40,490 nucleotides of DNA from an uncultured Gammaproteobacteria bacterium (GTDB lineage: Bacteria; Patescibacteriota; Patescibacteriia; Magasanikbacterales; GWA2-37-8), in NCBI GenBank assembly GCA_964535515.1, contig CAZHTA010000004.1, positions 27,888-68,377 on the forward strand. The letters run 5' to 3'. The notes beneath the pieces were generated by a model, which worked only from the letters and a program-made list of their open reading frames with translations, made no database searches and had not been told where the DNA came from. Shown here in pieces: positions 6,453 through 36,561 of this stretch; position 1 is the first letter of the stretch; every line of letters starts with the position of its first letter. The position numbers and the translations under genes are program-made.

Positions 6453-6481
6453 CCCGCCCACAATTTAGGGGGCGGGTTTTT
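6453..6481 (+). terminator. Rho-independent terminator
   Basis: Stem cccgccc (6453-6459) pairs with gggcggg (6470-6476), followed by a T-tract. Confidence 0.6.
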
Positions 6482-6509
6482 GACTTTTTTGGCTAAAATT
6501 TGGTAAGAT
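6480..6509 (+). promoter_or_regulatory. Candidate sigma70-type promoter of the swivel-paralog operon: TTGACT, 18-nt spacer, then TGgTAAGAT (extended -10)
   Basis: ttgact at 6480-6485, tgg at 6501-6503 and taagat at 6504-6509. The ATG at 6519 lies only about 10 nt past the -10, so the mRNA would be near-leaderless. Confidence 0.35.
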
Positions 6510-6518
6510 ATACCCTAT

Positions 6519-7973
6519 ATGAAACAAGACTATATCCTCAAACAGCGCAAAAAGAACATGTATATTTTCCCTAATGTTTTTGTGATTGGGCGGGTTTTTA
6601 CGGGCAGTTTGAACAAAATATTGAATGGTAAGAATTTTGGAGAAACAATGTGTATTTACAAGGACGATATGATGTATTGGTATGCTTCGGATAGTATGGT
6701 AAAAGCGGCGGCGCAAGAATTTTTTAAGAAATTAAAAAAGAATTCAAATTTTGTTTCTTCGTCTATTCGTATTTTTTCTAAACGTAGTAATTTTTTTCTG
6801 TCTTGGGTAAAAAAAGTTAGTAAGAGGGATTTATCAAAAATGACCAACAAGGAGCTGGATGTTTTTTGGGATAAGTATTTAGAGCTCTATGAGTCTAGCT
6901 ATATCTATAGTGAAGCATTGGTAATTTGTTTTGAAGAATACCTTTCTGGTCTTTTGTCTTCGTATTTAAAGAAATTAGTAAAAAGTGATACTGAAGCATC
7001 TCGGGTTCAAAATGTTCTTGCTTCGCCTTTGGAAAAATCATTTGTGAAAAGAGAAGAAGATGATTTGTTGAATTTGGCGTTAAAGATTAAAAACGGCAAG
7101 GTGAAGGATGTAGAATTGGCGTTAGAAAAACACGTGGAGAAGTATCAATGGGTGCCGTTTGATTATGGTATGTATATTTGGGATAAAAAATATTTTAAAA
7201 AGATTTTGCAAGGGATGTTAAAAAATGCAGATTTAGAGAATCGGATTGTGGCTAGTAAGAAATATTTGAAGTATTTGTCTTTGGAACAGTTGCGTTTAGA
7301 AAAGGAATTAAAGATTGACAAGCAATACAAAAAATATTTTATGGCGATGCGCCAGACGGGGTATTTGTTAGATTACAAAAAGGAAATTTTTACCCAGATA
7401 CATTTTTATGCAGAGAAGGTATTGGCGGAGACAGGTAAACGTTTGGGTGTAAAAAGAGATCTGGTGCAATATTATTTGCCAGGAGAAATCAAGACTGCCT
7501 TAAAGGAAGGTAAAGTGGTTGGCAAGAAAATATTAGAAGCGAGACAAAAACATTGTTATGTTCGTTGGTTTGATAATAGTATCGAAGCAGTGATAGACAA
7601 GCCGGATAGTTTGTTGGCTAAATTTTTATTAAAAGAAGATCCGACTTCAGCTAAATTTGAGGGTATTATTGCTTCGGCGGGAAAATGTATTGGAAAGGTA
7701 AAGATTTTACATAGTGCGTTAGAAGTAGACAAGGTGAAATTGGGTGATATTTTAGTTGCACCAATGACTAGTCCAGATTATGTTCCGGCGATGCGTTTGG
7801 CTGGGGCAATTATTACTGATGAGGGCGGGGTGATGTGTCACGCGGCGATTGTGTCGCGTGAATTAGGTATCCCGTGTGTGGTTGGTACGAAAAATGCCAC
7901 AAAGTTTTTACATGACGGTGACGAAGTGGAAGTGGATGCTAATCATAATTCGGTGAGGATAATTCGCAGATAG
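6519..7973 (+). CDS. Swivel paralog A: divergent N-terminal module followed by a C-terminal PEP-utilizing-enzyme mobile (phosphohistidine) domain
   Basis: C-terminus DEGGVMCHAAIVSRELGIPCVVGT matches the PEP-utilizers His signature. The N-terminal half contains the family motif HVEKYQW. Confidence 0.7.
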   Translation: MKQDYILKQRKKNMYIFPNVFVIGRVFTGSLNKILNGKNFGETMCIYKDDMMYWYASDSMVKAAAQEFFKKLKKNSNFVSSSIRIFSKRSNFFLSWVKKVSKRDLSKMTNKELDVFWDKYLELYESSYIYSEALVICFEEYLSGLLSSYLKKLVKSDTEASRVQNVLASPLEKSFVKREEDDLLNLALKIKNGKVKDVELALEKHVEKYQWVPFDYGMYIWDKKYFKKILQGMLKNADLENRIVASKKYLKYLSLEQLRLEKELKIDKQYKKYFMAMRQTGYLLDYKKEIFTQIHFYAEKVLAETGKRLGVKRDLVQYYLPGEIKTALKEGKVVGKKILEARQKHCYVRWFDNSIEAVIDKPDSLLAKFLLKEDPTSAKFEGIIASAGKCIGKVKILHSALEVDKVKLGDILVAPMTSPDYVPAMRLAGAIITDEGGVMCHAAIVSRELGIPCVVGTKNATKFLHDGDEVEVDANHNSVRIIRR

Positions 7974-7974
7974 C

Positions 7975-9411
7975 ATGTTAAATAGCAGCGATTCAAAACA
8001 TATTCGTGAAACTAATTGGTATCGCCAAGGTGGGGCGATTAATTTGTTTTATTGTTTTAGTCCGTTTCAATCTATTCGCGAAACCATTGGTTATGATGGT
8101 TGTATTATGTATCAAGAGGATGCTGTTAATACTGCTTTTTTTGAACGAGACAGAGAGGATAAGTTAGCACTTAAATTTATCCGAGCAAGCGGGGAAGACA
8201 AATATTTGGTGGACAGATGGATAAGCGTTTGGCGTATACGCATATTAAAGTTAAATAAGTTTTTAGATAAAAGTTTTTCTAAACCATTGGAAACGTGGTC
8301 TGATGCGGAGTTGGTTAATTTTTTCCATCGTTATGATCATTTGGCTTTAAGTCATTGGAAGAAGGGTGTTTTGTGTGAATGGACTGACCCTAATGGCTGG
8401 AATATAGTAAAGACGGAGGCTTTAAAATATTGCCCTAATCTTAGTGATGAAGATATTAATCTGTTAACATCACCAGAAAAGTTAACTGTAGTGCAGAAAG
8501 AATTAGTTGATCGGTTGGTTTTAATGAAAAAACAAAAGCAGGGTTTAAGTATTGAGCGCGAGCTTAAGAAACATGTTAGTAAATATTTTTGGATTCGCAA
8601 TAATTGGGCGTTTGTTTATGATTTAAAAGAAAAAGATTTTCAAAAGGTTATTAACAAAGAAATGTTAAAGTTGGAGAAAGTTGAAAGACAAGTGAAAGAA
8701 ATTAATGAATATATACGTGAGATTAAGAAAAAGAAAAAGATTTTAATCAAGAAAAAATCAGTACCACGTAAAGTACAAAATGTTTTTTACTTTTTTACTC
8801 AATTAACCGATTGGCGCGATGAGAGGAAAAAATTTGCTGCTTGTTTGCCAAATCATTATTTATATAAAATATTGAAAGTATTGGCGAAGAGAAATAATAT
8901 TTCTGAGGAGTTGGTTGGTTTATTAATATGGTTTGAAATTAGTGGTTGGAAATTATCTGTAAAAACAATAGATAATTTAAAAAGACGAGGGCAGGGCTGG
9001 ATCTATTATTGTCGTAAAAATAAACAATGCCAACAAGTTTATGGTAGTGAGGCAAAAAAGATTTTTAATGATTTGGTTAAGGCGTTAGATAAAGGTGAAT
9101 TGCGAGGGTTAATAGCAAACAAGGGTGTTGTGATTGGTAAAGCGAAGATTGTGGAAGTACAAGCTGATTTTAGTAAAGTAAAAAAAGGGGATATTATTGT
9201 TGCTAACATGACGCGCCCAGATTATGTACCGATTATGAAATTGGCAGGTGGAATAATTACCAATGAGGGAGGGATTACTTGTCACGCGGCAATTGTTAGT
9301 CGTGAGTTAAATATTCCTTGTATAATTGGGACACAGGTGGCTACGGATGTTTTAAAAGACGGTGATGTTATAGAAGTTGATGCGGATAATGGTGTAATTA
9401 GAAAAAAATAA
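7975..9411 (+). CDS. Swivel paralog B: N-terminal module plus PEP-utilizer phosphohistidine domain
   Basis: NEGGITCHAAIVSRELNIPCIIGT and KHVSKYFW. Starts 1 nt after paralog A. Confidence 0.7.
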   Translation: MLNSSDSKHIRETNWYRQGGAINLFYCFSPFQSIRETIGYDGCIMYQEDAVNTAFFERDREDKLALKFIRASGEDKYLVDRWISVWRIRILKLNKFLDKSFSKPLETWSDAELVNFFHRYDHLALSHWKKGVLCEWTDPNGWNIVKTEALKYCPNLSDEDINLLTSPEKLTVVQKELVDRLVLMKKQKQGLSIERELKKHVSKYFWIRNNWAFVYDLKEKDFQKVINKEMLKLEKVERQVKEINEYIREIKKKKKILIKKKSVPRKVQNVFYFFTQLTDWRDERKKFAACLPNHYLYKILKVLAKRNNISEELVGLLIWFEISGWKLSVKTIDNLKRRGQGWIYYCRKNKQCQQVYGSEAKKIFNDLVKALDKGELRGLIANKGVVIGKAKIVEVQADFSKVKKGDIIVANMTRPDYVPIMKLAGGIITNEGGITCHAAIVSRELNIPCIIGTQVATDVLKDGDVIEVDADNGVIRKK

Positions 9412-9414
9412 TTT

Positions 9415-10890
9415 ATGCAAGATATTAATAGGTTGACTGAGAAAGATTGGTATTTTCAAGGGTTCAATGGTGTCCCAGCTCTTTTGTATGGTCCCGCTTG
9501 GTCTATGGCGCGTGATATGCCAAAATTTTTAGGTTTTGGCTATTCTGTTTGTGTTGAATATTTCACTAAGGATGTTTGTTATTATCTATATTCTTGGGAT
9601 GATTTATATAAAATTCATGATGAATTATTAAAACGTGTTAAACGCGACAAAAATTATTTGCGTTATTTATCAAAATCAGATGAATGTTTATGTAAAGAAG
9701 TGATTAAAGAATATAAAATTTTAGGTGGGAAAGATTGGTGCAGTGCTTCCATAAAAGAATTATTTTCGGGTTGGCGTAAAGCCAATGATTTATATGCGCA
9801 TCTTTTAGGGGTTTCGCATATTGTAGAAGGGTTTAGTTTAACCACAGAAGATCGAATTAGAGCTTTGATTAATGAAGTTTTTCCTAATGATTCCGGAGCT
9901 TTGTCGTTGCTCACTACTCCCAAGACGCATTCTTTTATGTCTATTGAGCACTATGAGTTATGTTTAATAGCTCATGGTGTTAAACGTATTAAATTGGGTA
10001 AGTGTACTGTTGAAAATATTTTGGTTAATAAGGTGATAAATAAAAAAATATGTCTTCATCAGGAGAAATATTATTGGAAATTAAATGGTTATACGTCGGC
10101 TAAGTTTCTAGACGACAAGTATTTTGCCAAAGAAATATGTGGTTTGTTAAACAAGAAAGTTAATTTTGAAAAATTTATTCATGATTTTGAAAATTTGTCC
10201 AAAAGATTAGATGGAAAAAAGAAACTTCTTAAAAAAGTGAAAAATCAAGAATTACTTGATTTATTAAAAATTTCTGATGCGTTGTTTGTGATCCACGATC
10301 GTCGTAAAGAGCATATGACGCAATCAATTACTTATTTGGAATTAATTTTAAGTGAGATTGCTAAGCGATTTAAAATACCTTTATCTGATTTGCACTATAT
10401 TCGTCCGTCAGAGTTAGAAAAGTTACCTAAGATTTGGTCGGAGTTAAAAAAGAGGAAAGAACATAGCATATACATTTTATATCCAGAAGGAGAGATGCCA
10501 GTATTAACTGGTTTAAAAGCAAAAAAATATTTTGAAAAAATTGAAAAGAATAAAAAATTAGATAAGATTTCGGAGATTAAAGGGAATGGTGCGTCGCCAG
10601 GAAAAGTAAGAGGCGTAGTTAAGGTGTGCCGCGGTGAAAAAGAATTAGGTAAAATGAAAGAAGGAGATATTCTCGTGGCGTGTATGACACAGCCTGAATT
10701 TTTACCGGCTTTGAGAAAAGCTAAGGCCGTCATTACTGATGAGGGTGGTTTGACTTGTCATGCTGCGATAGTGGCAAGGGAGTTAGGAATTCCTTGTGTG
10801 ATTGGAACAAAAGTAGCTACTAAAGTTTTAAAAGATGGTGATATGGTAGAAGTTGATGCGGATAATGGTATAATTAGGAGAATAAAATAG
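9415..10890 (+). CDS. Swivel paralog C: N-terminal module plus PEP-utilizer phosphohistidine domain
   Basis: DEGGLTCHAAIVARELGIPCVIGT and QEKYYW. Confidence 0.7.
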   Translation: MQDINRLTEKDWYFQGFNGVPALLYGPAWSMARDMPKFLGFGYSVCVEYFTKDVCYYLYSWDDLYKIHDELLKRVKRDKNYLRYLSKSDECLCKEVIKEYKILGGKDWCSASIKELFSGWRKANDLYAHLLGVSHIVEGFSLTTEDRIRALINEVFPNDSGALSLLTTPKTHSFMSIEHYELCLIAHGVKRIKLGKCTVENILVNKVINKKICLHQEKYYWKLNGYTSAKFLDDKYFAKEICGLLNKKVNFEKFIHDFENLSKRLDGKKKLLKKVKNQELLDLLKISDALFVIHDRRKEHMTQSITYLELILSEIAKRFKIPLSDLHYIRPSELEKLPKIWSELKKRKEHSIYILYPEGEMPVLTGLKAKKYFEKIEKNKKLDKISEIKGNGASPGKVRGVVKVCRGEKELGKMKEGDILVACMTQPEFLPALRKAKAVITDEGGLTCHAAIVARELGIPCVIGTKVATKVLKDGDMVEVDADNGIIRRIK

Positions 10891-10960
10891 TTCTTTAAAA
10901 CACAAGCACCCGACCGAAGTCGAGTGCGTTGTGCACGTTGTTGGGGCCTGCTCCAATGAG

Positions 10961-11452
10961 CTAGGCCAGTCGCGTCGCGGTACCGTCGCCGAGGTGGAGC
11001 TCGTACACGGCGCTGCTCGCAGCCTCGAGCTTGAGGCTCTCGAGCACCGGACGTCCGGCCACGAGGACGACGTCCGGGCTGCCCTCGGCGAGGATCAGCA
11101 TGCCGTACGTTTCCCGCAGGTGCATGAGCGTGGCTTCGCGGGACGGCATTCGGAACCGGTCCAACGTCGTCTGCGCGTTGCAGGCGAGCGCGATGTTCCA
11201 CCCTCCGTTGCCGTTGGGGACGCCCGAGCTGGGGTCACCCAGCATGGGATCGTACCACTCGATCTCCTGGAAGATGTCCAGCGCCTCGGCCGTGTCGATG
11301 TGACGCCGGGCGGTCCCGCAGAAGACTCGACGCTTGTCGGGGAGGGGCAGGTGCGGTACGAGCCGTTCGATCTCGCTTCTTCCTTTGCTCGTGAGACCGG
11401 GGTCCGCACCGGGACCCTTCGAACCGTGGGTGATCAATAGGACTCGCGCCAT
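10961..11452 (-). CDS. High-GC foreign ORF of 163 aa on the opposite strand, with a weak histidine-phosphatase-like pattern (THG in place of RHG). Function unknown.
   Basis: Open frame with very high GC3 across the whole island and a strong SD (GGAGAAcgagagATG), unlike native genes. Protein begins MARVLLITHGSKGPGADPGLTSKGRSEIERL and contains VFCGTARRHIDTAEAL. The listed 198-aa ORF starts at an upstream in-frame codon; the SD supports the MARV start. Confidence 0.4.
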   Translation of the reverse strand: MARVLLITHGSKGPGADPGLTSKGRSEIERLVPHLPLPDKRRVFCGTARRHIDTAEALDIFQEIEWYDPMLGDPSSGVPNGNGGWNIALACNAQTTLDRFRMPSREATLMHLRETYGMLILAEGSPDVVLVAGRPVLESLKLEAASSAVYELHLGDGTATRLA

Positions 11453-11605
11453 CTCTCGTTCTCCTATGGTTGTGCGACACGCTGTCGCTTGGTCCCAAAT
11501 AAACGTGCAGTTTGTTTCAGATAGTGCTCGGATTTGGTTAAATCCAGGCAAAATCATGGTACCAAACGTTTCAGTATAGTATATTTTCGCTGTTTTGTCA
11601 ATATT

Positions 11606-13087
11606 ATGTACAAATCACCTCAATTTAAATCAAATAAACTAGAACTTACGGTTAGTCGTCCGTATGTTCCTTTGTGTGCTAACTATTTTTTCCAAAGCTA
11701 CAGTAATCCAGAATATTTTAAGAAGTTTTATAAAATTAACTTTTTTACTCGTTTATTAGCAATTAATGCGGATTTTTATTATGGCCTAGAAGCAAAAGAT
11801 TTTGGCTATGTTCTTTTTGGACAAGCGGCAAAGTATGGTAGTCATAGTAAAATTAAAAAGAAAAATCTTAAGGGTATTTTGCACATTTTTGATCGGACCT
11901 ATAAATTTGGTGATTCGTTATTGGAATTTACTTTGCAAGTTAAGAAAACAGATTTTTCTGAATATTCAAAGAAGCAATTATTAGAGGTGTTTGGAAAATT
12001 TTCGAAAGATTATGTTGTTTTTTGTACTGCTTTATTGGGTATGAATATGCAGTATGTTGTCGAAGATGGTTTGCGTGAGTTTCTACGAAGTGATAAAAAC
12101 GCAGAAGAGGAGCTTGCGATTTTGACTTTTCCTGATAAACAAAATGTTCTTGTTCAAGAACTAATGGACTTATTGCGTTTACGAATTAAATTAGAAAAAG
12201 TTGGTGTTAAGAATTTGGAAAAATGTAAGACCAAGGAGCTTGGCTTACTAAAGAAGCATGTTGATAAGTACGGTTGGATCAATGCTCGTGGTGCCATTAA
12301 TGAAGGATGGACGGTAAAAGAGGTTTTTGATCGGGCGATGGCAGAAAAGAATTGTGCTAAACGTTTGGTTGAGATAGTTAAGAATCAAAAAGAGCATCAA
12401 AAACAAGTTCGAGATATATTTAAAACAAAAAAACCTAATGCGGAAATTAGGGATTTAATAAAAATCGCCAAAGAGCTGGTATATTTTCGCACCTACCGTA
12501 CAGATTATCTTAATTGGATGTTTTTTAATATTCGTCCTTTATTAAATGCGTTGGCAGGTAAGATGGGTATTAGTTTTGAGGATATTATATATTATCTACC
12601 AAAAGAAATCATGACTAAGAAAAAAGTGTCTGAAAAAGAGGTTGTTCGTCGCAAGGAAGGTTACGCGATATTGTTAGCTAAACCTTATGAGGTATTATTC
12701 TCCTCTGATCCTAAGAAAATATTGGAATGGAAAAAGAAACATACTGAGGTATTAGGTGGCAATGTTACGGAAGTTAAGGGTATGTCTGCATACAAAGGTA
12801 TTGTTCGTGGTAAGGCTGTGTTGGTATTGAAAAAGGCTGATATGGTAAAGGTTAAGTCGGGGGATGTTTTAATCACTTTTATGACTACGCCAGATATGGT
12901 ATCGGTTATGCAGAAAGCAATAGCGTTTGTTACTGATGAGGGTGGTATTACATGCCATGCGGCGATTGTAGCACGGGAGATGAAGAGACCGTGTGTAACA
13001 GGGACCAAAATTGCTACTAAGGTTTTTAAAGATGGCGATGAAGTAGAAGTGGATGCGAATACTGGTGTAGTGAAAATTATTAAATAA
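11606..13087 (+). CDS. Swivel paralog D: N-terminal module plus PEP-utilizer phosphohistidine domain
   Basis: DEGGITCHAAIVAREMKRPCVTGT and KHVDKYGW. The listed ORF starts at a TTG (11534) inside the island; the first ATG is at 11606 (MYKSPQFK). Confidence 0.65.
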   Translation: MYKSPQFKSNKLELTVSRPYVPLCANYFFQSYSNPEYFKKFYKINFFTRLLAINADFYYGLEAKDFGYVLFGQAAKYGSHSKIKKKNLKGILHIFDRTYKFGDSLLEFTLQVKKTDFSEYSKKQLLEVFGKFSKDYVVFCTALLGMNMQYVVEDGLREFLRSDKNAEEELAILTFPDKQNVLVQELMDLLRLRIKLEKVGVKNLEKCKTKELGLLKKHVDKYGWINARGAINEGWTVKEVFDRAMAEKNCAKRLVEIVKNQKEHQKQVRDIFKTKKPNAEIRDLIKIAKELVYFRTYRTDYLNWMFFNIRPLLNALAGKMGISFEDIIYYLPKEIMTKKKVSEKEVVRRKEGYAILLAKPYEVLFSSDPKKILEWKKKHTEVLGGNVTEVKGMSAYKGIVRGKAVLVLKKADMVKVKSGDVLITFMTTPDMVSVMQKAIAFVTDEGGITCHAAIVAREMKRPCVTGTKIATKVFKDGDEVEVDANTGVVKIIK

Positions 13088-13117
13088 TTTGTTTATATAT
13101 TTTTAACTTATAAAAAT

Positions 13118-14200
13118 ATGGAAAGAGGACCAAGTTTAAGGCCAGAGGATATGCTAGTTGGCAATGATGGGGTGGATCAGAAAGCGCGAGGTGTAATTGA
13201 ATCACGTGATAGCGCCGTAGCTCATAATATTGAGCGTGGGGAAGGCTTATCATCTTCGCGTGTTGTTTTGGAGTTTATGCGTCATGGTAAAAAAGAAAAA
13301 GCGCCAGGCAAAGATGATCGTGATATACGCATTGTTCCGGAAGCGCGTGTGGCAGCAACGGAAAAAGGTAAAAAATTAGGAGCGCAAGCTGAGGTGTCGG
13401 TTGTTTATGCTAGTCCGCGTAACCGTACTCAGGAATCTGCTGGCCGAGTTGCTTTGGGTAATCAATCAGAAATTACTGCGGATATGAGCTTAGAGGATAT
13501 TATGGTTAAAACAATGGAGCATAATGCTATTTTAATGCCTGATCAGTTAGAACGTTTGCGCGAGCTGTTGTCTCATCCAATGGAAGAATTAAATGCTGAA
13601 GAAAAGAAGGAGCTAAAACTTTTGTCGAGTAAAGGTAAAAAAATCATGGTTGATGAACGTTTGGATTTTACTGATGAAACAGAGGAGGGTCTAAAAGCTT
13701 TTATGGCTGGTCGTTATTTAGATCATGCTGTAAAGGATAGTGATCAGTTGGCAATTGCAAAGCATGATACTAAATTATCTACCTATACTCGTTCGGCTGG
13801 TAAGATCGCGGAGATTGTTTCTAAATATATTCAGGTGGGTAAAAATTTTAACAAAAGAGTAAGTGTTGATCCAGAGAAATATAAAAAATTCGGTAATCAA
13901 TTAGAAAGATATTTTGGTTCACACCAAGGTGTTGTAGAATGTTTTTTGTTGAAAGCAATCGAGAAAATAAAAGGTGTAAAAGAGCGTGATGAGATTTTGG
14001 CTTTGATGCCAGCAGGTTTTAAAGAGTTACAAGGTGTAAGGATTGGCATTGAGAACAATGGCAAAGGAGAACAGGTGATTGTTTTAGATGCCGAAGTTGA
14101 AGGAAGAAAGATTAATTTAGAATTAACCCCAGAGATTTTAATGGGTATGGTTAGTGATAGAGATGTGCTGGATGAACAATGTAAGAGTAGTGTGGAGTAA
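13118..14200 (+). CDS. Histidine phosphatase superfamily (PGAM/SixA-like, RHG motif) protein
   Basis: VLEFMRHGKKE (RHG), then VPEAR..A.EKGKKLG, VVYASPRNRTQESA (SP..R..Q.A) and a distal GSHQGVVE resembling the second catalytic His region. Confidence 0.55.
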   Translation: MERGPSLRPEDMLVGNDGVDQKARGVIESRDSAVAHNIERGEGLSSSRVVLEFMRHGKKEKAPGKDDRDIRIVPEARVAATEKGKKLGAQAEVSVVYASPRNRTQESAGRVALGNQSEITADMSLEDIMVKTMEHNAILMPDQLERLRELLSHPMEELNAEEKKELKLLSSKGKKIMVDERLDFTDETEEGLKAFMAGRYLDHAVKDSDQLAIAKHDTKLSTYTRSAGKIAEIVSKYIQVGKNFNKRVSVDPEKYKKFGNQLERYFGSHQGVVECFLLKAIEKIKGVKERDEILALMPAGFKELQGVRIGIENNGKGEQVIVLDAEVEGRKINLELTPEILMGMVSDRDVLDEQCKSSVE

Positions 14201-14210
14201 TATTGTTGTT

Positions 14211-15281
14211 ATGTCTATCGTTCCTGATAAATTTTTAAAAGGAGAGTGTTGGCTGAAAGATTGGGCGGGTCAGTGGGATCTTTTTATTTGTTTTTATTCA
14301 GGAGAAGATTATACCACCTTACTTAAAAAGTGGTTGGGTATTAATTTTGATAAATGTCTTTTTATTTATCACGATGGGTTTGTGGAGTGTTATTTAAATA
14401 AAAGATGTTTAGATATTTTGGGTAGAGAGATTAACGCGAGGGTTAAAGAGGATGTTTTGTGGATTGATAGGAATTGTAAAGATCTTAAAAAGAATACACA
14501 AATTTTCCTAAAATATTTTGCTGAGCATAAAAACGATTTGGTTGCGGAAGAGACATTGAAGAAGTTTTTGCAGTTGGTTAGCAATTGTTTTGCTGCGTAT
14601 ATTTCTAATAAATTAGCATTTGATTATTTGTCAGCAGATATATTAAAGAAAAAATGGAATGTGATGGAATCGGCACGTGTATACTCAGAATCGGTTTATA
14701 CGGCGTGTATAGAGTTTGTTCACAATTGGGGTAAACAAATGGCGAAAAAAGTTAAGATACCAAAGGATCTCTTTCTTTGTTGTTCGTTAAATGAAATTGA
14801 AACTTATTATCGATCGGGTAGATTACCAAGTGTTAGCGAGTTAAAGCGACGGTATTCGTTTAATGTGATACTTTCACAGAATGGTCAGAGTTTTTTATTG
14901 ACTGGCTCAGAGGCTAAGGCTGTTGAGAAAAAGATTATTAGTTCATTTGGCGACAGTAAAACCATTAAAGGCACCTGTGCCTATCCGGGGAAAGTAACGG
15001 GGCGGGTTAGAATTGTTTTTGATCCTAAAAAGATAAAAGATTTTAAAGATGGGGATATCTTGGTAACACCGATGACGCGACCGGAGTATCTTTCTCTAGT
15101 TAAAAAATCCGCTGGTTTTATTACTGATGCTGGCGGTATGCTTTCTCACGCCGCTATTACAGCGCGCGAGTTAAAGAAGCCGTGCGTGGTAGGTACCCAA
15201 GTGGCTACGCGTTTGTTAAAAAATGGAGATGAGGTGGAAGTGGATGCCAACAAAGGGATAGTTAATGTGATTAAAAGATAA
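14211..15281 (+). CDS. Swivel paralog E: shorter N-terminal module plus PEP-utilizer phosphohistidine domain
   Basis: DAGGMLSHAAITARELKKPCVVGT (Ser replaces the usual Cys before the His). First non-overlapping ATG is at 14211; the listed ORF begins at 14154. Confidence 0.6.
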   Translation: MSIVPDKFLKGECWLKDWAGQWDLFICFYSGEDYTTLLKKWLGINFDKCLFIYHDGFVECYLNKRCLDILGREINARVKEDVLWIDRNCKDLKKNTQIFLKYFAEHKNDLVAEETLKKFLQLVSNCFAAYISNKLAFDYLSADILKKKWNVMESARVYSESVYTACIEFVHNWGKQMAKKVKIPKDLFLCCSLNEIETYYRSGRLPSVSELKRRYSFNVILSQNGQSFLLTGSEAKAVEKKIISSFGDSKTIKGTCAYPGKVTGRVRIVFDPKKIKDFKDGDILVTPMTRPEYLSLVKKSAGFITDAGGMLSHAAITARELKKPCVVGTQVATRLLKNGDEVEVDANKGIVNVIKR

Positions 15282-15288
15282 TGATTTT

Positions 15289-16839
15289 ATGAAGGTGCTA
15301 AAAACTTTTCCTTTGGCTTTGACCAAAAAAACTGCTAGTCAGTTTAATAAGGCGTTTCATGCCAAGTTATTTACTTTGTTTGCTTCTTCGATGAGTGAAC
15401 TAATGCAGTTGGCTAAGGATTTTCCTGTGCATTATAAACATTGTTTGTGTTTTATTAAAGATGATTTAGGCCAGTGGTTTTTGGGCGCAGATAGCATCGA
15501 AAGAGTTAGGCGGTATATCATAAAAAAAGCTGATGAGGATTTTTCTCAGATAAATAAATATTATTTACGTTGGCAGAAAGACTGGGGTAAGTTTTTAATA
15601 TTAAACAGAAAATTAATTAGTTCAGATTTTAGTTCTTTGACTGACAAGCGGTTGTATAAAGTTTTTGATGAGTTTTATGATCTATATTTAAAAGTAGGTG
15701 GTGTGGCATATATTAGTGATGCCTTTATGTCCTCTGGGGAAAAAGATTGGCTGCAAGAGGTTATAAACCAAGAATTAAAACGCATTTATAAAGATATTGA
15801 AAAAGTAAAAAGGGTGGCGGCGGATTTGATTTCGCCAGTTCATCTTTCTTTTGTTTTGGAAGAAGAACTTGAATTATTAAAACTAGCTCCGGCGTTTATT
15901 AATCTTACTGGTAAATTGGTGGGTTTTAATAAGTTGTCCGCTAAACAACTAGCGCAGCTGGAACGTCATGCTGACAAATATTATTGGATGAATAATAACT
16001 ACTATAACGTAGAATTTTACGATGCATTTTCAGTATATACACATCTGGTCAATCTTTTAGATGGTTTGCAACAAGAAAAACGTAGCCTTAGTGATTTTTT
16101 GGCGGAGAGACAGCGCGAATTAAAGGAAAATAAAACGAGGCGTGAGGGGTTGATTAGTGATATTAAGCTACCAAAAAAGATTAAGAGCTTAATTCGGGTA
16201 GCTAATTTGTTTAGCAAGTGGAAAGACGTTCGGAAAAGTGGTGTGTATCGTGGCATGGCAATTTTTGATAAATTTTTGGGCGAGATAGCAATGCGTACTG
16301 GTTATACAAAAAAGGAAATTACTTTTTTAGTTTTTCCGGAGTTCAAGGATTTATTGTTAAATAGAAAAGATTTTCGGTTGGTTATAAAAGATCGTCAAAA
16401 GCAAATATTTTTTGTGGTGCGTCCGCACGACTATCTTTTGGTTAGCGGTCAAAAGGCGGATAAATATTTTGCTTGTTTGTCCGAAGGACTCAATGCTGAG
16501 ATGAAAGAATTCAAAGGAGCAGTGGCCTCCAAAGGAATCGCGCGCGGGGTGGTGCGGATGATAAGGAAAACAGAAGAGATGAAAGACTTTAAAAAAGGTG
16601 AAATTTTAGTTACCAACAATACTACACCAGAGTTTGTTCCAATCATGAAAAAGGCCGCAGCGATCATTACTGAACAAGGTGGTATAACCTCACATGCTGC
16701 TGTAGTTTCGCGTGAATTGCGTAAGCCGTGTATTATTGGTGTTAAAGGTATTACAACCATTTTAAAAACAGGGGTAGAGGTTGAAGTAGATGCTAATCAT
16801 GGTATAATTAAGATTATTAATAAAAGTTTAAAGAAATAA
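15289..16839 (+). CDS. Swivel paralog F: N-terminal module plus PEP-utilizer phosphohistidine domain
   Basis: EQGGITSHAAVVSRELRKPCIIGV and ERHADKYYW. Confidence 0.7.
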   Translation: MKVLKTFPLALTKKTASQFNKAFHAKLFTLFASSMSELMQLAKDFPVHYKHCLCFIKDDLGQWFLGADSIERVRRYIIKKADEDFSQINKYYLRWQKDWGKFLILNRKLISSDFSSLTDKRLYKVFDEFYDLYLKVGGVAYISDAFMSSGEKDWLQEVINQELKRIYKDIEKVKRVAADLISPVHLSFVLEEELELLKLAPAFINLTGKLVGFNKLSAKQLAQLERHADKYYWMNNNYYNVEFYDAFSVYTHLVNLLDGLQQEKRSLSDFLAERQRELKENKTRREGLISDIKLPKKIKSLIRVANLFSKWKDVRKSGVYRGMAIFDKFLGEIAMRTGYTKKEITFLVFPEFKDLLLNRKDFRLVIKDRQKQIFFVVRPHDYLLVSGQKADKYFACLSEGLNAEMKEFKGAVASKGIARGVVRMIRKTEEMKDFKKGEILVTNNTTPEFVPIMKKAAAIITEQGGITSHAAVVSRELRKPCIIGVKGITTILKTGVEVEVDANHGIIKIINKSLKK

Positions 16840-16840
16840 T

Positions 16841-17827
16841 ATGCCAAAAGTTTCTCATATTAAGTTTTTTAAGAATATCTCTAAAAGTGATGTTGATATT
16901 GCTGGTGGTAAGGGTGCGTCTTTAGGTGAGATGACACAAGCCAAGATTCCAGTACCAAATGGTTTTGTGGTTTTAGCCGCAGCCTTTGATCGTTTTTTAG
17001 AAGAGACACAATTAAAAGAGGAAATTGTGGCACGGCTAAAGGAAGTTAACCCAGAAGATACTAATTCGGTTGATCGTATTAGTGCGGTTATTCGTGATGC
17101 GATTCATGATCGGTCAATGCCTAAAGATTTGCAGAAAGAAATTTTAGGAGCATTTACTAAGTTAGATGCTAAATTTGTGGCTGTACGTTCATCGGCTACA
17201 GCAGAGGACTCATCTGTTGCTAGCTGGGCAGGGGAGCTGGAGAGTTATTTAAATACGAGTAAAAAAGATTTGATTGAACGGGTGCGTCGTTGTTGGTCGT
17301 CGTTGTTTACTCCGCGTGCTATTTTTTATCGTCATGAAAAAGGGTTAATTGACCATTATGTCTCAGTAGCGGTAGTAGTACAAAAAATGGTGCAGTCAGA
17401 AATTTCTGGCATTGCTTTTACTGTTCATCCAGTAACGGAAGATTATGACCAGATGATTATTGAAGCGGGGTATGGTTTGGGTGAAGCGATTGTCTCTGGA
17501 CAAATTACACCTGATAGCTATGTGATTAGCAAGGGTAGTATGGAGATTATGGATACTTATGTTAGTTCACAAGCTCGTCAGTTAATTCGTAAGAAATCTG
17601 CTAAGAGCAAAGGGGATGAAGAAAACACTTCAAATGAGTGGGTAAATTTAGGTAAAAAAGGTGAAAAACAAAAGGTCGACAACAAAACGGTCTTGGCCCT
17701 GGCCAAAGTATTTAAACGGATTGAGGACCATTACAAGTTTCCGTGTGATATCGAATGGGCTATGGAAAAGAAAAAAATATATATTACCCAAAGTCGTCCG
17801 ATTACTACTTTAAAGAAGAAAAAGTAG
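16841..17827 (+). CDS. Stand-alone PEP synthase / pyruvate phosphate dikinase N-terminal nucleotide-binding (ATP-grasp, PPDK_N-like) domain protein
   Basis: DVDIAGGKGASLGEM, VAVRSSATAEDSSVASWAGELESY, ISGIAFTVHPVT and ITQSRPIT are motifs of the PEP synthase/PPDK/rifampin-phosphotransferase ATP-binding domain. There is no swivel or PEP-binding domain in this ORF. It starts 1 nt after paralog F. Confidence 0.75.
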   Translation: MPKVSHIKFFKNISKSDVDIAGGKGASLGEMTQAKIPVPNGFVVLAAAFDRFLEETQLKEEIVARLKEVNPEDTNSVDRISAVIRDAIHDRSMPKDLQKEILGAFTKLDAKFVAVRSSATAEDSSVASWAGELESYLNTSKKDLIERVRRCWSSLFTPRAIFYRHEKGLIDHYVSVAVVVQKMVQSEISGIAFTVHPVTEDYDQMIIEAGYGLGEAIVSGQITPDSYVISKGSMEIMDTYVSSQARQLIRKKSAKSKGDEENTSNEWVNLGKKGEKQKVDNKTVLALAKVFKRIEDHYKFPCDIEWAMEKKKIYITQSRPITTLKKKK

Positions 17828-18974: not shown

Positions 18975-18980
18975 AACGCA

Positions 18981-19009
18981 TTGACAGAAACACGTTTTTG
19001 TGCTATAAT
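18981..19009 (+). promoter_or_regulatory. Near-consensus sigma70 promoter: TTGACA, 17-nt spacer, TGcTATAAT
   Basis: ttgaca at 18981-18986 and tataat at 19004-19009 with a TG extension. It precedes a leader of about 140 nt before the ATG at 19150. Confidence 0.6.
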
Positions 19010-19149
19010 GTCAACAATTAACTTGGGCAATGTAGTAAGGGCCTAAAAGCCAACAGGACGTTCCCAGTATTTCCAGGCTGGATTAAACCAGTCGGAGGTC
19101 GAATTTATCTATCTCAAACAACATTTTGGGAACAAAACAATCAAAATAT

Positions 19150-24277: not shown

Positions 24278-24394
24278 AACCTCCTGCTTTGTCTCCAAAT
24301 ATTTAGAGATAAAACAGTAGGGCGGTCGGATATGTATCCTTTGTCCCACTGCGCTCTGGATCGAACGATCCTGGGCGGGGGGGCACGGGCCTCT

Positions 24395-28803: not shown

Positions 28804-28829
28804 GCTGTTATATATTTTCAAAAGAAAAT

Positions 28830-33468: not shown

Positions 33469-34830
33469 ATGGAACAGGTGAATATTAAAAGATACAAAGA
33501 TTCTTTTAAGTGGCAGTTTGGTGCTTATCCTTTTTTTACTTCGGTTTTTACTAAATGCGCTGATTTGAAAATTAAAAAGAAACATCATCTTTGTTTTAAT
33601 GAATATATTAGTAATTTTGAAAATGATTCAGTAACAGCGTTTATTCCATGGGAAGTTTTTGAAACACCTGGTAGGAAGATTATTAAAAAAATACTAGCAG
33701 GGGACAAGTATTATTATAACGAAATAAAAAGAACACATAGTGCAGTTAAAAAAGCTATTGCAGCATGTTTGTTGGCGCGGTCTAAAAATGTTAATGAATT
33801 GGGTAGGTGGTGGAGATTAACTCAGGATGCGCTATCGGATGTTAGTCGTGTATTATATTCATTTGATTTTACTTTTGATTTATTTTTAAATGAATTAAGA
33901 GCGAAGGATCAGGATTTGTTTGTGGTGTTGTTAGAGAATATAAAAACAAAAGAAAAATCTTTTCTTGAGGAAGCCTCGGCTAAGTTGTTAAAATTAAAAT
34001 CAGAAAGCAGTGATTTTAAAAAGGTCTATATTAAATTTGTTAAAGAGTTTGGGTGGTTTCAAAATAGTTATAGAGGAGTTTTTAAATTCGATGAGACTTG
34101 GTTGAAACAGTATTTAAAAAATATTTTGCAGCCAAATAAAAAGGACAAAGCAAAGGCGCCGGGCGTTGTTCCGTCTAAATACAAGTTATTAGTTAAGTTG
34201 GCGAAAGAAACGATAGTGTTTAGAGATGACAAGAAAAAATTATTACTAGTCGCAGCAGATGTGATGGATAGTTGGCTAAGGAGAGTTTGCAAAGAACACG
34301 GTTGGTCTTTTGAAGCAATGCGTTGGTTAACAGTAGATGAGATATTGGATGTAATAGAAAATGGTAATAAAAAGAATTTGGTGTTGGCAGAAAAATATTA
34401 CAAAGCCAAGCGACGCATTGGTGTTATGGTCAGTACAGGTTATTTAGATATTAGTAAAAAAGATTGGGACAAAATATATTTGTTGTACTTTACTTCTAAG
34501 AGTGGTTTGGTAAAAGGATTGGCAGCTAACAAAGGTGTCTATAGAGGAACGGTGCGAGTAATTTTAGATCCAGTGAAGGATGCAAAAAAGTTTTATCCAG
34601 GAGATGTTTTAGTCGCCTCGATGACTCGTCCGGAGTATATTAGTCTAATGAGTAAGGCGGGTGCTTTTGTGACTGATGAAGGTGGAATATCTTGTCATGC
34701 TGCTATTGTGGCTAGAGAAATGGGGAAGCCGTGTATTATTGGCACCAGAAATGCTACTAAGATGTTAAAGGATGGTGATTTTGTGGAGGTGGATGCTAAT
34801 ATTGGAATTATTAAAGTCGTTAAAAATTAA
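33469..34830 (+). CDS. Swivel paralog G: N-terminal module plus PEP-utilizer phosphohistidine domain
   Basis: DEGGISCHAAIVAREMGKPCIIGT. The N-terminal half shares the family pattern (VKEFGWFQNSY). Confidence 0.7.
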   Translation: MEQVNIKRYKDSFKWQFGAYPFFTSVFTKCADLKIKKKHHLCFNEYISNFENDSVTAFIPWEVFETPGRKIIKKILAGDKYYYNEIKRTHSAVKKAIAACLLARSKNVNELGRWWRLTQDALSDVSRVLYSFDFTFDLFLNELRAKDQDLFVVLLENIKTKEKSFLEEASAKLLKLKSESSDFKKVYIKFVKEFGWFQNSYRGVFKFDETWLKQYLKNILQPNKKDKAKAPGVVPSKYKLLVKLAKETIVFRDDKKKLLLVAADVMDSWLRRVCKEHGWSFEAMRWLTVDEILDVIENGNKKNLVLAEKYYKAKRRIGVMVSTGYLDISKKDWDKIYLLYFTSKSGLVKGLAANKGVYRGTVRVILDPVKDAKKFYPGDVLVASMTRPEYISLMSKAGAFVTDEGGISCHAAIVAREMGKPCIIGTRNATKMLKDGDFVEVDANIGIIKVVKN

Positions 34831-34843: not shown

Positions 34844-35461
34844 ATGATTATGAATAAGTCTTTTATCTTTGATTGGTCTGGGACGCTAAGTGACAATTTC
34901 AACTGCTTTTGTAAAGTGTGTGATTTGATGTTTCCGGAATTAGGGCGAGAAAAAATTACTCCTGAAGAAATTAGGAAGGAGTTTACTTTACCGTATATGT
35001 CTTTTTGGAATAAATATTTTCCGGAATTATCCCAAGAAAAACAATGTGGAATGTATGTAAAATATATTCATCAGGTTGGTAATCCGAATCTTTATCCGGG
35101 TGTAAAAGAAGTAATTACAGCATTGCATGGCGGTGGTCATAAGATATTTATTGCAAGTTCCGATCCAGAATCAAAGATAACAGAAGAAATTGAAGCTTCA
35201 GGTTTAAAGGATTTTTTAAGTGGGTATTATTTTGAATTACAAGATAAGACTGAAAAGATTATGGAGCTGGTTAATAATACGCCTTTAGATATTAACAGTA
35301 CTTACTATATTGGTGATACTTTTGGTGATGTTGAGATGGGTAAAAAAGCGGGTGTTAAAACAGTTGGTATTTCTTGGGGGTTTCAGAGTCGTGAGGGTTT
35401 GGCTCTGAGTAAACCGGATTTTTTAATTGATGATATTTTAGAGATTAAAAATATTATATAA
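34844..35461 (+). CDS. HAD-superfamily phosphatase
   Basis: Motif I FIFDWSGTLSDN (DxxGT), motif IV YYIGDTFGDVEMGKKAG and a cap region. Confidence 0.7.
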   Translation: MIMNKSFIFDWSGTLSDNFNCFCKVCDLMFPELGREKITPEEIRKEFTLPYMSFWNKYFPELSQEKQCGMYVKYIHQVGNPNLYPGVKEVITALHGGGHKIFIASSDPESKITEEIEASGLKDFLSGYYFELQDKTEKIMELVNNTPLDINSTYYIGDTFGDVEMGKKAGVKTVGISWGFQSREGLALSKPDFLIDDILEIKNII

Positions 35462-35466: not shown

Positions 35467-36561
35467 GTGCGTTCAGTATTGAATACAATTAAAAAATTTG
35501 ATTTAGAAGTGGCCACTAAAAGACCTCTACCTTTGTTTACCTTGAGTTGTATAGGGAAAACCTATGTGGATGTATTAAAAAAGAAATATTTTAAGTGTAA
35601 TTATGAGGCTGTAGCTGGTTGGGGTGATAAAAATGGTTTTGTATCTTTACTTAATGAAGAGGCGGTGGTGGATACAATGGCAAATAAGTTAAAAAAAGAA
35701 AAAGATATAAAAAAGAAGTTTGTGGTACCTCTACAAACCAATTTTGTAAAGTTTAAGAAAGAATTTAATGTATTGTTGTCTAATTTGGGAAGAAAGAATG
35801 CGTTGTTAAGTTTAAAACTTTTGTCTAAGTATTATATTGACTATCTCGTGATCTTAGGTAGCTTGAATTGTCTTTGGCGATATATTGGTGATAACGCCGT
35901 AACAAAGTGTAACAAAAAAGACATTGAATATTTTGCCAAAGCCAGGGGAAATGTTGCAGAAATATATCCGCAGATGGAAGGGGCTCTTTCTTTGTTGTGT
36001 AACAAAATTGGTGAGCAGCAAAAATTTGACGGCGATTTGTTGCGATATTTTACTCGCGCAGAGTTAGATAATTTTTTAGACAAAAAGGAATTGTTAAATT
36101 TGGAAAAGCAACAAAAGTTAAAGAAGAGGAAAGTTGGATATTTTTATATTTACACTAAAAATACTGAAGAAGTTGTAACTGAGGACAACGTTTTAATAAA
36201 AAAGATCAAACAGTTTGCACTTAAAAATAGCCAGCCCAAGTCAGGATTAAAAGGTACAGTTGTTTATCTAGGCAAGGTAGAAGCAAAGGTGTTTAATTTT
36301 GATCAAAATTTTAAGAAAGCACCTGCTGGTAAATTTATTTTGGTAACACACATGACTCATCCTAAAGATTTAACGTTGATTAAAAAATCACTAGGGATAA
36401 TTACTGATGAAGGGGGAGTGTTGTGTCATGCGGCGATTATGGCGCGTGAACTCAAGAAGCCGTGTATAATTGGTACAAAGGTGGCTACGCAATTATTAAA
36501 AACCGGTATGAGTGTTGAATTAGATTGTTACAAAGGAACTATTAAAATAATTAAAAAATAA
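35467..36561 (+). CDS. Swivel paralog H: N-terminal module plus PEP-utilizer phosphohistidine domain
   Basis: DEGGVLCHAAIMARELKKPCIIGT. GTG start at 35467. Confidence 0.65.
   Translation: MRSVLNTIKKFDLEVATKRPLPLFTLSCIGKTYVDVLKKKYFKCNYEAVAGWGDKNGFVSLLNEEAVVDTMANKLKKEKDIKKKFVVPLQTNFVKFKKEFNVLLSNLGRKNALLSLKLLSKYYIDYLVILGSLNCLWRYIGDNAVTKCNKKDIEYFAKARGNVAEIYPQMEGALSLLCNKIGEQQKFDGDLLRYFTRAELDNFLDKKELLNLEKQQKLKKRKVGYFYIYTKNTEEVVTEDNVLIKKIKQFALKNSQPKSGLKGTVVYLGKVEAKVFNFDQNFKKAPAGKFILVTHMTHPKDLTLIKKSLGIITDEGGVLCHAAIMARELKKPCIIGTKVATQLLKTGMSVELDCYKGTIKIIKK

Follow-up and report, generated by a model that had tools for sequence, protein, structure and literature searches.

A window of 40,490 nucleotides from Candidatus Magasanikbacteria (CPR), the whole stretch of DNA analyzed here, encodes eight swivel-His proteins but a single ATP-grasp gene (tblastn; Table 1). 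We consider this locus to be probably a multi-branched split dikinase of the rifampin phosphotransferase (RPH) or HpeHI type (probability about 0.6). What is observed is the domain content, the homology and the conservation of catalytic residues and of gene neighborhood, and from these we infer charging in trans, sharing of the ATP-grasp subunit, the chemistry and the role of Y. By homology with RPH, PpsAB and HpeHI, protein G would be the ATP-binding component and, once loaded, would present ATP to the swivel domain at the C-terminus of a partner. The invariant histidine of the partner is expected to attack the beta-phosphate, yielding AMP and a pyrophosphoryl-histidine, from which the gamma-phosphate would then leave as Pi. 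The phosphohistidine domain could swing back to its own N-terminal module, where a bound acceptor would receive the phosphate on a hydroxyl group, at a phosphotransfer site putatively built from the conserved residues H...W, D-x-R-K, E and R. Since one ATP-grasp protein faces eight carriers, a ratio which recurs in relatives, we propose that it charges several carriers one after another, each being specific for a different acceptor. Candidate acceptors are xenobiotics or scavenged metabolites that phosphorylation would trap in the cell.

Table 1. Features of the swivel-His array and its neighbors (positions within the window)
Feature	Position	Strand	Description	Motifs and sites
Paralog A	6519..7973	+	484 aa; long-form N-module, then C-terminal swivel-His; N-module HMM and swivel HMM matches; PF00391 E 1.2e-26, residues 409-476	His441 in GGVMCHA; D285-Y-K-K at hallmark site
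Paralog B	7975..9411	+	478 aa; PF00391 E 7.6e-26	His437 in GGITCHA; D282-E-R-K
Paralog C	9415..10890	+	491 aa; PF00391 E 4e-28	His449 in GGLTCHA
Cassette X	10906..11601	-	gene 10961-11452	promoter-like 11601-11573; terminator-like hairpin 10927-10906
Paralog D	11606..13087	+	493 aa from ATG 11606; ORF opens TTG 11534; PF00391 E 1.4e-23	
Y	13118..14200	+	His_Phos_1-fold enzyme, 360 aa; PF00300 E 8.4e-6	
Paralog E	14211..15281	+	short form, 356 aa from ATG 14211; ORF opens GTG 14154; PF00391 E 3.3e-25	
Paralog F	15289..16839	+	516 aa; PF00391 E 5.2e-26	His469 in GGITSHA; D313-V-R-K
G	16841..17827	+	stand-alone ATP-grasp (PPDK_N), 328 aa; PF01326 E 1.1e-95	
Paralog H	33469..34830	+	453 aa; found by tblastn; PF00391 E 4.8e-25	GGISCHA; D253-D-K-K
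HAD-family hydrolase	34844..35461	+	205 aa, between H and I; HAD_2 E 5.7e-21; NCBIfam HAD-IA	
Paralog I	35467..36561	+	short form, 364 aa, GTG start; PF00391 E 9.6e-23	GGVLCHA

Genes A-F (6519-16839) run in the same direction and each ends in a swivel-His domain (PF00391, E 1e-23 to 4e-28). This agrees with the first-pass annotation, which had described six such genes lacking an ATP-grasp domain and a TIM barrel; the Pfam search found no domain besides PF00391 in A-F, and the PEP/pyruvate TIM barrel (PF02896) is missing from the window as a whole. Eight paralogs had been claimed, and PF00391 matches the C-termini of all eight, although H and I, which complete this number, lie beyond the interval 6480-17827 given for the array. 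The ORFs of all eight are intact, the catalytic residues of their swivel domains do not vary, and the GG-x-x-x-H-A-A motif, including the histidine, is invariant by alignment and motif scan. The most likely starts of D and E are ATG 11606 and ATG 14211. Spacers of 1-10 nt had been reported for the array apart from its two interruptions; the measured spacers are A-B 1 nt, B-C 3, E-F 7, F-G 1, D-Y 30 and, if E begins at ATG 14211, Y-E 10. Because nearly the whole window consists of close-packed genes on the same strand, spacing is a weak sign of the operon proposed earlier, and gene adjacency kept in other genomes argues for it more strongly. Cassette X on the minus strand carries a promoter-like and a terminator-like site of its own and is predicted to divide the array, which would then comprise two or more transcription units.

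The ORF 1 nt downstream of F had been described as ATP-grasp only, and PF01326, aligned over model positions 2-315 of 328, is indeed its sole Pfam match; neither a swivel domain nor a PEP/pyruvate TIM barrel was found in G by Pfam. [quoted passage not shown] The VAVRSSATAED, DIEW and QSRP motifs are retained, R116 occupies the position of RPH R117, and S135 replaces RPH T136 (RPH residues from PMC4844700). The 80 closest metagenomic relatives are encoded by stop-to-stop ORFs of 312-377 aa, except for a few which are split or cut by contig ends, and a swivel fusion occurs in one of the 80. We rejected the possibility that G is a fragment of a longer gene, as its relatives are of similar size and almost never carry a fused swivel domain.

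No Pfam family matches the N-terminal modules, which most resemble the rifampin-binding domain of RPH. A Foldseek search with the N-module alone returned RPH as the only global match (TM 0.44-0.50, probability 1.00, E 0.011-0.024), while non-RPH matches had TM values of 0.18 or lower. Positions 278-490 of the family profile align with RPH 650-866, so that D295 and K298 fall on the essential E667 and K670 (H294-D295-R296-R297-K298 of paralog C against RPH R666-E667-Y-P-K670), whereas PEP synthases align with this profile only from about position 371. Residues D295, R297, K298, H215, W221, E333 and R347 are each conserved in 85-98% of 108 family representatives, drawn from a library with clustering at 50% identity. 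The NCBIfam PigC model covers residues 235-488 of paralog C and reaches deeper into the N-module than the RPH and PEP synthase models; PpsA-like NCBIfam models match the family only via the swivel domain. Both the structure comparison and the profile alignment thus favor the domain order suggested at first, namely an RPH-like architecture in which the His domain lies C-terminal to the substrate module, unlike that of PEP synthase.

Identities among the paralogs are 20-32% for N-terminal modules and 41-60% for swivel domains, and this far greater divergence of the N-modules appears to be new. Paralog C (AF2 model with pLDDT 91) is the only one with close orthologs in every grasp-bearing relative, its N-module sharing 44-69% identity with those of Magasanikbacteria relatives and 29-40% with those in DPANN loci, which points to C as the conserved core member and partner. 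Orthologs of the paralog B N-module occur in loci L005 and L007 at about 40% identity. We propose that A, B, F and H, which are full-length, represent lineage-specific enzymes. A motif scan showed that the hallmark D-x-[RK]-K motif is missing from D, E and I, three of the eight. Paralog D keeps the swivel histidine (GGITCHA) and has T-Y-R-T at the hallmark site, an apparently degenerate motif. Paralog E has an intact swivel histidine (GGMLSHA) and an N-module without HMM positions ~139-296; it clusters with I in a recurrent short subfamily, which is found in many genomes and accounts for 29 of the 41 short ORFs in sampled loci. Given the missing motif in D, E and I and the placement of E and I in the short subfamily, it is unlikely that all eight paralogs are kinases of equal standing. 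The short forms probably have another mode of action and may serve a different protein as phosphocarriers.

Swivel genes directly adjoin a stand-alone grasp gene in both CPR and DPANN loci, and the one-to-many layout recurs in these bacteria and archaea with 0-8 swivel genes per grasp gene (swivel copy number among relatives ranges from 1 to 11). Among 26 well-flanked loci with a G homolog, at least one swivel gene is present in 20, at least two in 17, and none nearby in six. Two grasp genes were found in one of 80 G-homolog loci, and most multi-gene arrays have exactly one. The arrays come from independent assemblies, and long multi-copy predicted products such as P0030 contain several swivel domains with one PPDK_N. 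No grasp gene was found near the arrays L003 (11 genes) and L013 (4 genes); with these arrays and the six swivel-less grasp loci, adjacency is not obligatory. In CPR and DPANN this one-to-many layout appears to be new.

Two genes within the array had been taken for interruptions, yet Y and X are more than that. The catalytic residues of Y (R55-H56-G57, R103, E106 and H269) are present and invariant in 15 aligned members, and its homologs, which form 49 clusters, lie inside swivel/grasp clusters in four of four sampled contexts and for 12 of 12 Y genes in the loci examined. Judging from these residues and contexts, Y is a catalytically intact, dedicated partner of the swivel array and belongs to the system. 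With its phosphatase/mutase fold, it may work on phosphorylated products or discharge the phosphohistidine. The gene of cassette X encodes a weakly His_Phos_1-like protein of 163 aa (E 0.005) with an 'ITHG' motif; the promoter-like site is an 11/12 match and the hairpin is the best terminator in the region. The GC content of the cassette is 67% versus 37% for the window (GC1/GC2/GC3 of 0.67/0.49/0.85), no Rfam match was found, and its homologs in L067 and L086 are also on the minus strand with raised GC. Cassette X is self-contained, with foreign (high-GC) codon usage. Both findings, the Y partner and this cassette, appear to be new. Paralogs H and I are surrounded by a cell-envelope gene cluster (glycosyltransferase, FemAB, flippase and O-antigen-ligase). 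HAD-like genes like the one between them recur with the swivel family in L003, L005 and L091, and a swivel-HAD fusion (P0116) was detected.

One alternative, which we regard as unlikely, is that the carriers are G-independent transphosphorylases which pass phosphate from phosphorylated small molecules to unphosphorylated ones or use another donor, acting with the His_Phos_1 and HAD enzymes, and that only C with G is a true dikinase. HpeH alone moves phosphate from 4-phosphoacetophenone to acetovanillone, and the grasp-less L003 and L013, the close orthology of C alone in all grasp-bearing relatives and the phosphatase/mutase-fold genes interleaved with the arrays would all fit. However, the net reaction would still require energy input, multi-gene arrays mostly keep exactly one grasp gene, PPDK_N is included in the multi-copy products, and the swivel identity is as expected for docking onto a common partner. 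Somewhat less probable again is the same charging without a stable phosphate ester, the paralogs being ATP-dependent ligases or activating enzymes of envelope or metabolite biosynthesis; in the manner of PigC, HapC and RedH, which are RPH-like ligases, they would phosphorylate an oxygen and so prepare it for substitution or condensation. The deep reach of the PigC model and the envelope cluster around H and I speak for this, as does HapC, which has been described as a related enzyme of prodiginine biosynthesis (PMC13534948). Yet the PigC score is 85 bits against a cut-off of 1300, genes for a second substrate are not consistently linked, and dedicated phosphatase-fold partners better suit phosphorylated products.

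We see still less reason to expect a phosphorelay or protein kinase system, with protein-binding N-modules as in PTS enzyme I, targets regulated by His or Ser/Thr phosphorylation, and Y as the matching phosphoprotein phosphatase, like SixA. The conserved D-x-R-K site corresponds to the small-molecule phosphotransfer site of RPH, genes for HPr-like or other targets are not linked, and characterized proteins of the same architecture all act on small molecules (PMC12167813). That the extra copies are functionless, as decaying duplicates or assembly artefacts, is largely refuted. Although E and I are shortened, D lacks the hallmark motif and copy number varies among relatives, the ORFs and swivel residues are intact, the short forms make up a conserved subfamily found in many genomes, N-modules differing by ~70-80% keep the hallmark residues, and arrays recur across assemblies.

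The split dikinase that we favor has close precedents. PpsAB, CreHI and HpeHI are characterized dikinases of two separate components, and the H581Q substitution in HpeH abolishes activity (PMC12167813); as they already have exactly this split, the principle is not new. As here, HpeHI (Rhodococcus), CreHI (Corynebacterium) and PpsAB (Thauera phenylphosphate synthase) have a separate ATP-grasp subunit, a partner whose swivel His lies C-terminal to its substrate module, adjacent genes and a GG-x-x-x-H motif, and the likely reaction is also ATP to AMP and Pi via phosphohistidine. They pair one H-type with one I-type protein, whereas up to eight carriers are found here and 11 in a relative. The N-module here has ~380 aa versus roughly 500 in HpeH/PpsA (about 120-250 residues shorter) and shows no detectable sequence likeness to PpsA-like models outside the swivel domain. 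Two residues before the histidine there is usually Thr here and Met in those systems, whose hosts are degraders of aromatic compounds rather than CPR and DPANN; the dedicated His_Phos_1 partner here is a further difference.

RPH (PDB 5FBS/5FBT/5HV1) has the same order of substrate module and C-terminal His domain, is the sole PDB structure globally similar to the N-module, and its ATP-grasp domain is homologous to G, but it is one polypeptide of 865 residues, whereas the ATP-grasp is encoded separately here. Sequence alignment with RPH is limited to the last ~110 N-module residues, and this likeness does not mark rifamycins as substrates. The prodiginine ligases PigC, HapC and RedH contain the same three modules, unlike here in single polypeptides of ~880 aa, and their pathway is absent at this locus. 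PEP synthase (8a8e) is closest in sequence to G (E 1e-71) and to the paralog C swivel domain (E 5e-30), and PEP synthase and PPDK share the Thr two residues before the histidine with most family members; PEP synthase has a central swivel and three modules in one chain, while here the swivel is C-terminal, the modules are split and there is no TIM barrel. PTS enzyme I and HPr offer a likeness in that one charging step feeds several specificities via a phosphohistidine carrier. The PTS uses PEP as donor with HPr and EII, whereas the system described here has no HPr/EII components, would use ATP via the ATP-grasp protein, and has each carrier fused to its own substrate module.

Each of six tandem genes (A-F) had been proposed in the first-pass annotation to end in a swivel-His domain, and Pfam searches bear this out. 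PF00391 was found at the C-terminus of all six proteins (E 1.4e-23 to 4e-28), with no second Pfam domain in any of them. The same annotation spoke of eight swivel proteins; this number is explained by two further paralogs, H and I, which lie elsewhere in the window and were recovered by tblastn with the swivel domain. All eight C-termini match PF00391 (E 1e-22 to 4e-28), and the phospho-carrier His is invariant among these proteins, which we call carriers, together with its GG-x-x-x-H-A-A context. The longer T/S-x-x-G-G-x-x-x-H context is also present, with an invariant His and a conserved GG. The suggestion that the paralogs lack both an ATP-grasp domain and a PEP/pyruvate TIM barrel holds as well, with PF00391 the sole Pfam domain of A-F and the TIM barrel model PF02896 not found in the 30 window ORFs scanned.

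The gene that follows F, here called G, had been read as the nucleotide-binding part of such enzymes alone. Its only Pfam content is PF01326 (PPDK_N; E 1.1e-95, model positions 2-315 of 328), and it has no swivel domain. [quoted passage not shown] The alpha-phosphate-binding Arg of RPH, R117 (PMC4844700), is kept in G as R116, and the position of RPH T136 is occupied by Ser. The possibility that G is a fragment of a longer gene was checked in 80 metagenomic loci centred on G homologs of 59-89% identity. The grasp ORF measures 312-377 aa in these loci, save for a few split or cut cases, and a grasp-swivel fusion occurs in one of the 80. Judging from these lengths and the end-to-end match to HpeI, G is a complete stand-alone protein and no fragment. 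Across the 40-kb window, tblastn found the ATP-grasp domain once.

Features of the swivel array and its surroundings (window coordinates)
Feature	Position	Strand	Remark
TrwB/VirD4-like ATPase	4408-6441		directly upstream of array
Carrier A	6519-7973	+	
Carrier B	7975-9411	+	
Carrier C	9415-10890	+	
GC-rich block		 	643 bp, between C and D
X cassette	10906-11601		between C and D
X gene	10961-11452	-	163 aa
Carrier D	ORF opens 11534; end 13087	+	likely start ATG 11606
Y	13118-14200	+	His_Phos_1
Carrier E	ORF opens 14154; end 15281	+	likely start ATG 14211
Carrier F	15289-16839	+	
G (ATP-grasp)	16841-17827	+	1 nt after F
SPFH/Band-7 membrane protein	17853-18974		after G
Sigma-70-type promoter match	18981-19009		TTGACA, 17 nt, TATAAT, upstream TG
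Second GC-rich island	24301-24601		
Cell-envelope cluster	28778-39500		contains H, I and a HAD hydrolase
Carrier H	33469-34830	+	from tblastn, whole window
Carrier I	35467-36561	+	from tblastn, whole window

The carriers range from 356 to 516 aa. Within the window their swivel domains are 41-60% identical and their N-terminal modules 20-32%. By comparison with relatives, C is the conserved core member: its N-module shares 44-69% identity with counterparts in Magasanikbacteria and 29-40% with those in DPANN loci. Orthologs of B are about 40% identical, and the best identity in the sampled loci for A, D, E, F and H is about 28%. A D-x-[RK]-K motif occurs in A, B, C, F and H, and the same site in D reads T-Y-R-T. 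E and I are members of a short subfamily (350-390 aa) that occurs repeatedly and lacks N-module HMM positions ~139-296; 29 of 41 short ORFs of the sampled loci cluster with E. Because of the altered motif in D and the short form of E and I, the eight carriers are unlikely to be equivalent enzymes. A reading of the extra copies as decaying duplicates was rejected.

The N-modules match no Pfam family, and their profile gave no match to PDB sequences. C was modelled by AF2 with good confidence (pLDDT 91), and two RPH entries were the sole global Foldseek matches of the N-module (TM 0.44-0.50, prob 1.00, E 0.011-0.024), all remaining matches having TM of 0.18 or less. Positions 278-490 of the family profile align with RPH 650-866; with PEP synthases the alignment begins only near position 371. 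In the RPH alignment H294-D295-R296-R297-K298 of the family falls on R666-E667-Y-P-K670 of RPH, where Arg666 and Glu667 are required for the second phosphotransfer and Lys670 lies within the same hydrogen-bond network (PMC4844700). Among 108 representatives taken from a library clustered at 50% identity, D295 (93%), R297 (85%), K298 (96%), H215 (91%), W221 (96%), E333 (94%) and R347 (98%) are conserved, and the rest of the module is highly variable. We conclude that the carriers are probably RPH-type proteins, a substrate domain followed by the swivel His, the fold evidence alone being moderate. At an E cut-off of 1e-3 the N-module family, a substrate domain without a Pfam model or a characterised member, comprises 4,420 clusters (50% identity); at 1e-10 it comprises 2,847.

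A ratio of one grasp to several carriers, which had been suggested for survey in related genomes, recurs in part. Four relatives have one carrier and one grasp each (L001, L010, L011, L012). Another has four carriers, one grasp and then a further carrier (L005), and L009 combines one grasp and a Y homolog with four or more carriers. Five DPANN loci (L014, L016-L019) have one or two carriers with a grasp. In the 26 G-centred loci that extend 5 kb or more upstream and 3 kb or more downstream, we found no carrier in 6 loci, one in 3, two in 5, three in 2, four in 4, five in 3, six in 2 and eight in 1. Two grasp genes were present in only 1 of the 80 G-centred loci. Multi-carrier loci are thus recurrent, but 6 of the 26 loci have no carrier, and the eleven tandem carriers of L003 (GW2011_GWC2_37_14) have no grasp within 3.7 kb. 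Our literature search for such arrays in CPR and DPANN found no description of them.

C-type carriers and stand-alone grasps were also seen in DPANN archaeal MAGs (L013-L019; Woesearchaeota, Nanoarchaeia), with 29-40% identity to the bacterial C. This suggests that CPR bacteria and DPANN archaea have the system in common. The labels of L012 (Gammaproteobacteria) and L013 (Methanosarcinales) may be binning errors. Some predicted products are long: P0030 joins four swivel domains and one PPDK_N, and P0032 and P0033 also join several carriers, P0033 with a PTA_PTB domain in addition. Both fusion and read-through gene calls could produce such products. L105 encodes a 1230-aa PPDK_N plus swivel protein (8895-12587) beside a Y homolog, and a Fic-domain gene lies within the array of L102 (11933-12991).

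Two genes, X and Y, interrupt the array in the window. Y matches PF00300 (E 8.4e-6) and resembles branch 1 histidine phosphatases in having RHG with the nucleophilic His, a second Arg and a distal His. An alignment of 15 family members shows no change at the corresponding residues R55, H56, R103, E106 and H269. The family forms 49 clusters, and the few with source names come from Patescibacteria-group bacteria. Y homologs lie within carrier arrays in 4 of 4 sampled contexts, as do 12 of 12 Y genes in the sampled loci. Y is not a random insertion, and the interruptions are part of the picture. Relative to its homologs, the Y of the window is extended at the N-terminus and carries an additional insertion of about 30 aa. 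About half of the 12 Y genes adjoin a short-form carrier, as Y adjoins E, a trend that by rough arithmetic does not clearly exceed chance. HAD-like genes are another repeated feature: one lies between H and I in the window, others occur in L003, L005 and L091, and P0116 is a predicted carrier-HAD fusion. The cluster that holds H, I and the HAD hydrolase encodes two FemAB proteins, a polysaccharide flippase, GT4 and GT2 proteins, a PD-(D/E)XK nuclease and a Wzy_C O-antigen ligase; this setting is a possible clue to the acceptors of H and I.

The product of X is weakly His_Phos_1-like. Its codon-position GC of 0.67/0.49/0.85, beside neighbours with GC3 of ~0.26-0.32 in a genome whose gene GC3 is about 0.3, identifies X as a real protein-coding gene with high-GC codon usage. 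An RNA gene as the source of the GC-rich block was dropped after Rfam at E up to 1 gave nothing credible there. X forms a self-contained cassette with a promoter-like site (11/12 match) and a terminator-like hairpin, the best of the region, and it divides the array into two or more transcription units. No X homologs were found in a 5.8-billion-protein index, a plasmid collection or a phage collection. Searching the ORFs of sampled related loci yielded two beside grasp genes, L067 11002-11505 (minus) and L086 582-1088 (minus), both GC-elevated. Two minus-strand ORFs within the L005 array (16622-17140 and 18599-19141) have GC3 of 0.82 and 0.91, and one of them carries an RHG motif (His_Phos_1 E 2e-4). 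Further GC-rich islands lie in or beside arrays at L003 18901-20101, L029 7501-8301, L034 6601-7201 and 8401-9301, and L067 7401-7901. Such islands recur at swivel arrays of several unrelated assemblies, and the codon usage of their genes looks foreign. The second island of the window has overlapping ORFs on both strands within a stretch of about 1 kb without a long plus-strand ORF; Rfam at E up to 1 gave no credible match in it.

The window has a GC content of about 37%, nearly all of its genes are on the plus strand, and its proteins have their nearest named relatives in Candidatus Magasanikbacteria (CPR/Patescibacteria). Close gene spacing is typical of the whole window and not special to the array. 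A tRNA scan of the window found none, and Rfam at gathering thresholds gave nothing credible across it. A, C, F, G, X and Y match no PADLOC defence-system model, the matches being limited to the upstream ATPase and the SPFH protein. The ATPase is TrwB/VirD4/HerA-like, ends in about 240 aa of low complexity with many Gln, Pro, Ser and Lys residues, and matches the PADLOC model mad8 (E 1e-15). It immediately precedes the array in L037 and in every Magasanikbacteria relative. As a system component it was rejected, since it is conserved only in Magasanikbacteria synteny and absent from DPANN loci. A perfect sigma-70-type promoter match stands just after the SPFH gene and before a treble-clef zinc-finger gene, which suggests that the transcription unit with D-G and the SPFH gene ends near it.

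We favour the reading of this locus as a branched HpeHI/RPH-type dikinase, with a probability of about 0.6. G would transfer the beta-phosphate of ATP to the swivel His in each of several carriers, and every full-length carrier would then use its D-x-R-K site to phosphorylate an acceptor of its own. Processing the products, or resetting the carriers, would fall to Y and perhaps also to the HAD enzyme. One alternative is that the carriers transfer phosphate independently of G, which we consider improbable. We give even less credence to activation chemistry of the PigC type, and a protein phosphorelay seems the most remote of these explanations.

If the locus is a branched dikinase, its acceptors are of particular interest. 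The authors of the HpeHI study proposed that such dikinases may trap substrates inside the cell and so make their scavenging possible (PMC12167813). By analogy, scavenging of this kind would suit host-dependent CPR cells. Rapid paralog turnover would also fit detoxification, and the position of H and I in a cell-envelope cluster hints at envelope precursors as acceptors. We tentatively put forward a broader and somewhat doubtful proposal for CPR and DPANN, organisms in which most biosynthetic pathways are missing. One grasp might feed fast-evolving, copy-variable carriers with differing pockets, with which His_Phos_1 or HAD proteins and short forms cooperate. Such a network would be an ATP-driven counterpart of the PTS that traps and salvages host metabolites or neutralises toxins of hosts or competitors.

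A large part of microbial diversity consists of CPR and DPANN organisms, whose metabolism is minimal and which depend on hosts. To our knowledge, metabolite capture and processing in them is largely unknown. If one grasp truly serves many carriers, the two-component dikinase class would broaden from aromatic catabolism into a general multi-substrate phosphorylation platform, and the arrays would offer biocatalysis natural specificity variants on a common scaffold. Annotation would change as well. Public records use names such as 'phosphoenolpyruvate synthase/pyruvate phosphate dikinase' for these proteins, and the genes would be neither gluconeogenic PEP synthases nor necessarily resistance genes. 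A resistome survey has reported rph calls in CPR (PMC8651080), and genes of the N-module type may lie behind some 'rifampin phosphotransferase' calls in such surveys. Further leads are offered by the small cassettes of high-GC codon usage and by the dedicated His_Phos_1 partner of the arrays.

PpsAB, CreHI and HpeHI are established two-component dikinases in which the grasp subunit is split from a substrate-plus-swivel subunit (PMC12167813). The mechanism proposed in the first-pass annotation is thus standard for this class and its principle is not new; the observation of PF00391 carriers beside a stand-alone PF01326 protein is confirmed, and its interpretation is supported in part. In HpeHI, HpeI is the grasp subunit and HpeH is modelled as a RIF-BD-like domain plus swivel; H581Q in HpeH abolishes activity, and the HpeH/HpeI complex is only transient (PMC12167813). 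The window shares with these systems a grasp that forms a protein of its own and lacks swivel and substrate domains, partners with a C-terminal swivel and catalytic His (all eight carriers) and adjacent component genes, an arrangement seen at F-G and again in loci from CPR and DPANN. Members of the PpsA/HpeH clade have ~600-640 aa and about 45% mutual identity. Since the carriers are shorter and NCBIfam PRK08296-type (PpsA-like) models match them through the swivel part only, far below cut-offs, they are not members of this clade. PEP synthase and PPDK have a central swivel and a C-terminal TIM barrel, whereas the swivel here is C-terminal and PF02896 is absent from the 30 window ORFs scanned. 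The RPH models NF041857 and NF000283 score 62.8 and 45.1 bits with C, and 273.3 and 196.2 with G, against cut-offs of 999 and 1700. RPH itself is one polypeptide of ATP-grasp, RIF-binding and C-terminal His domains, whereas here the grasp and the carriers are encoded by separate genes.
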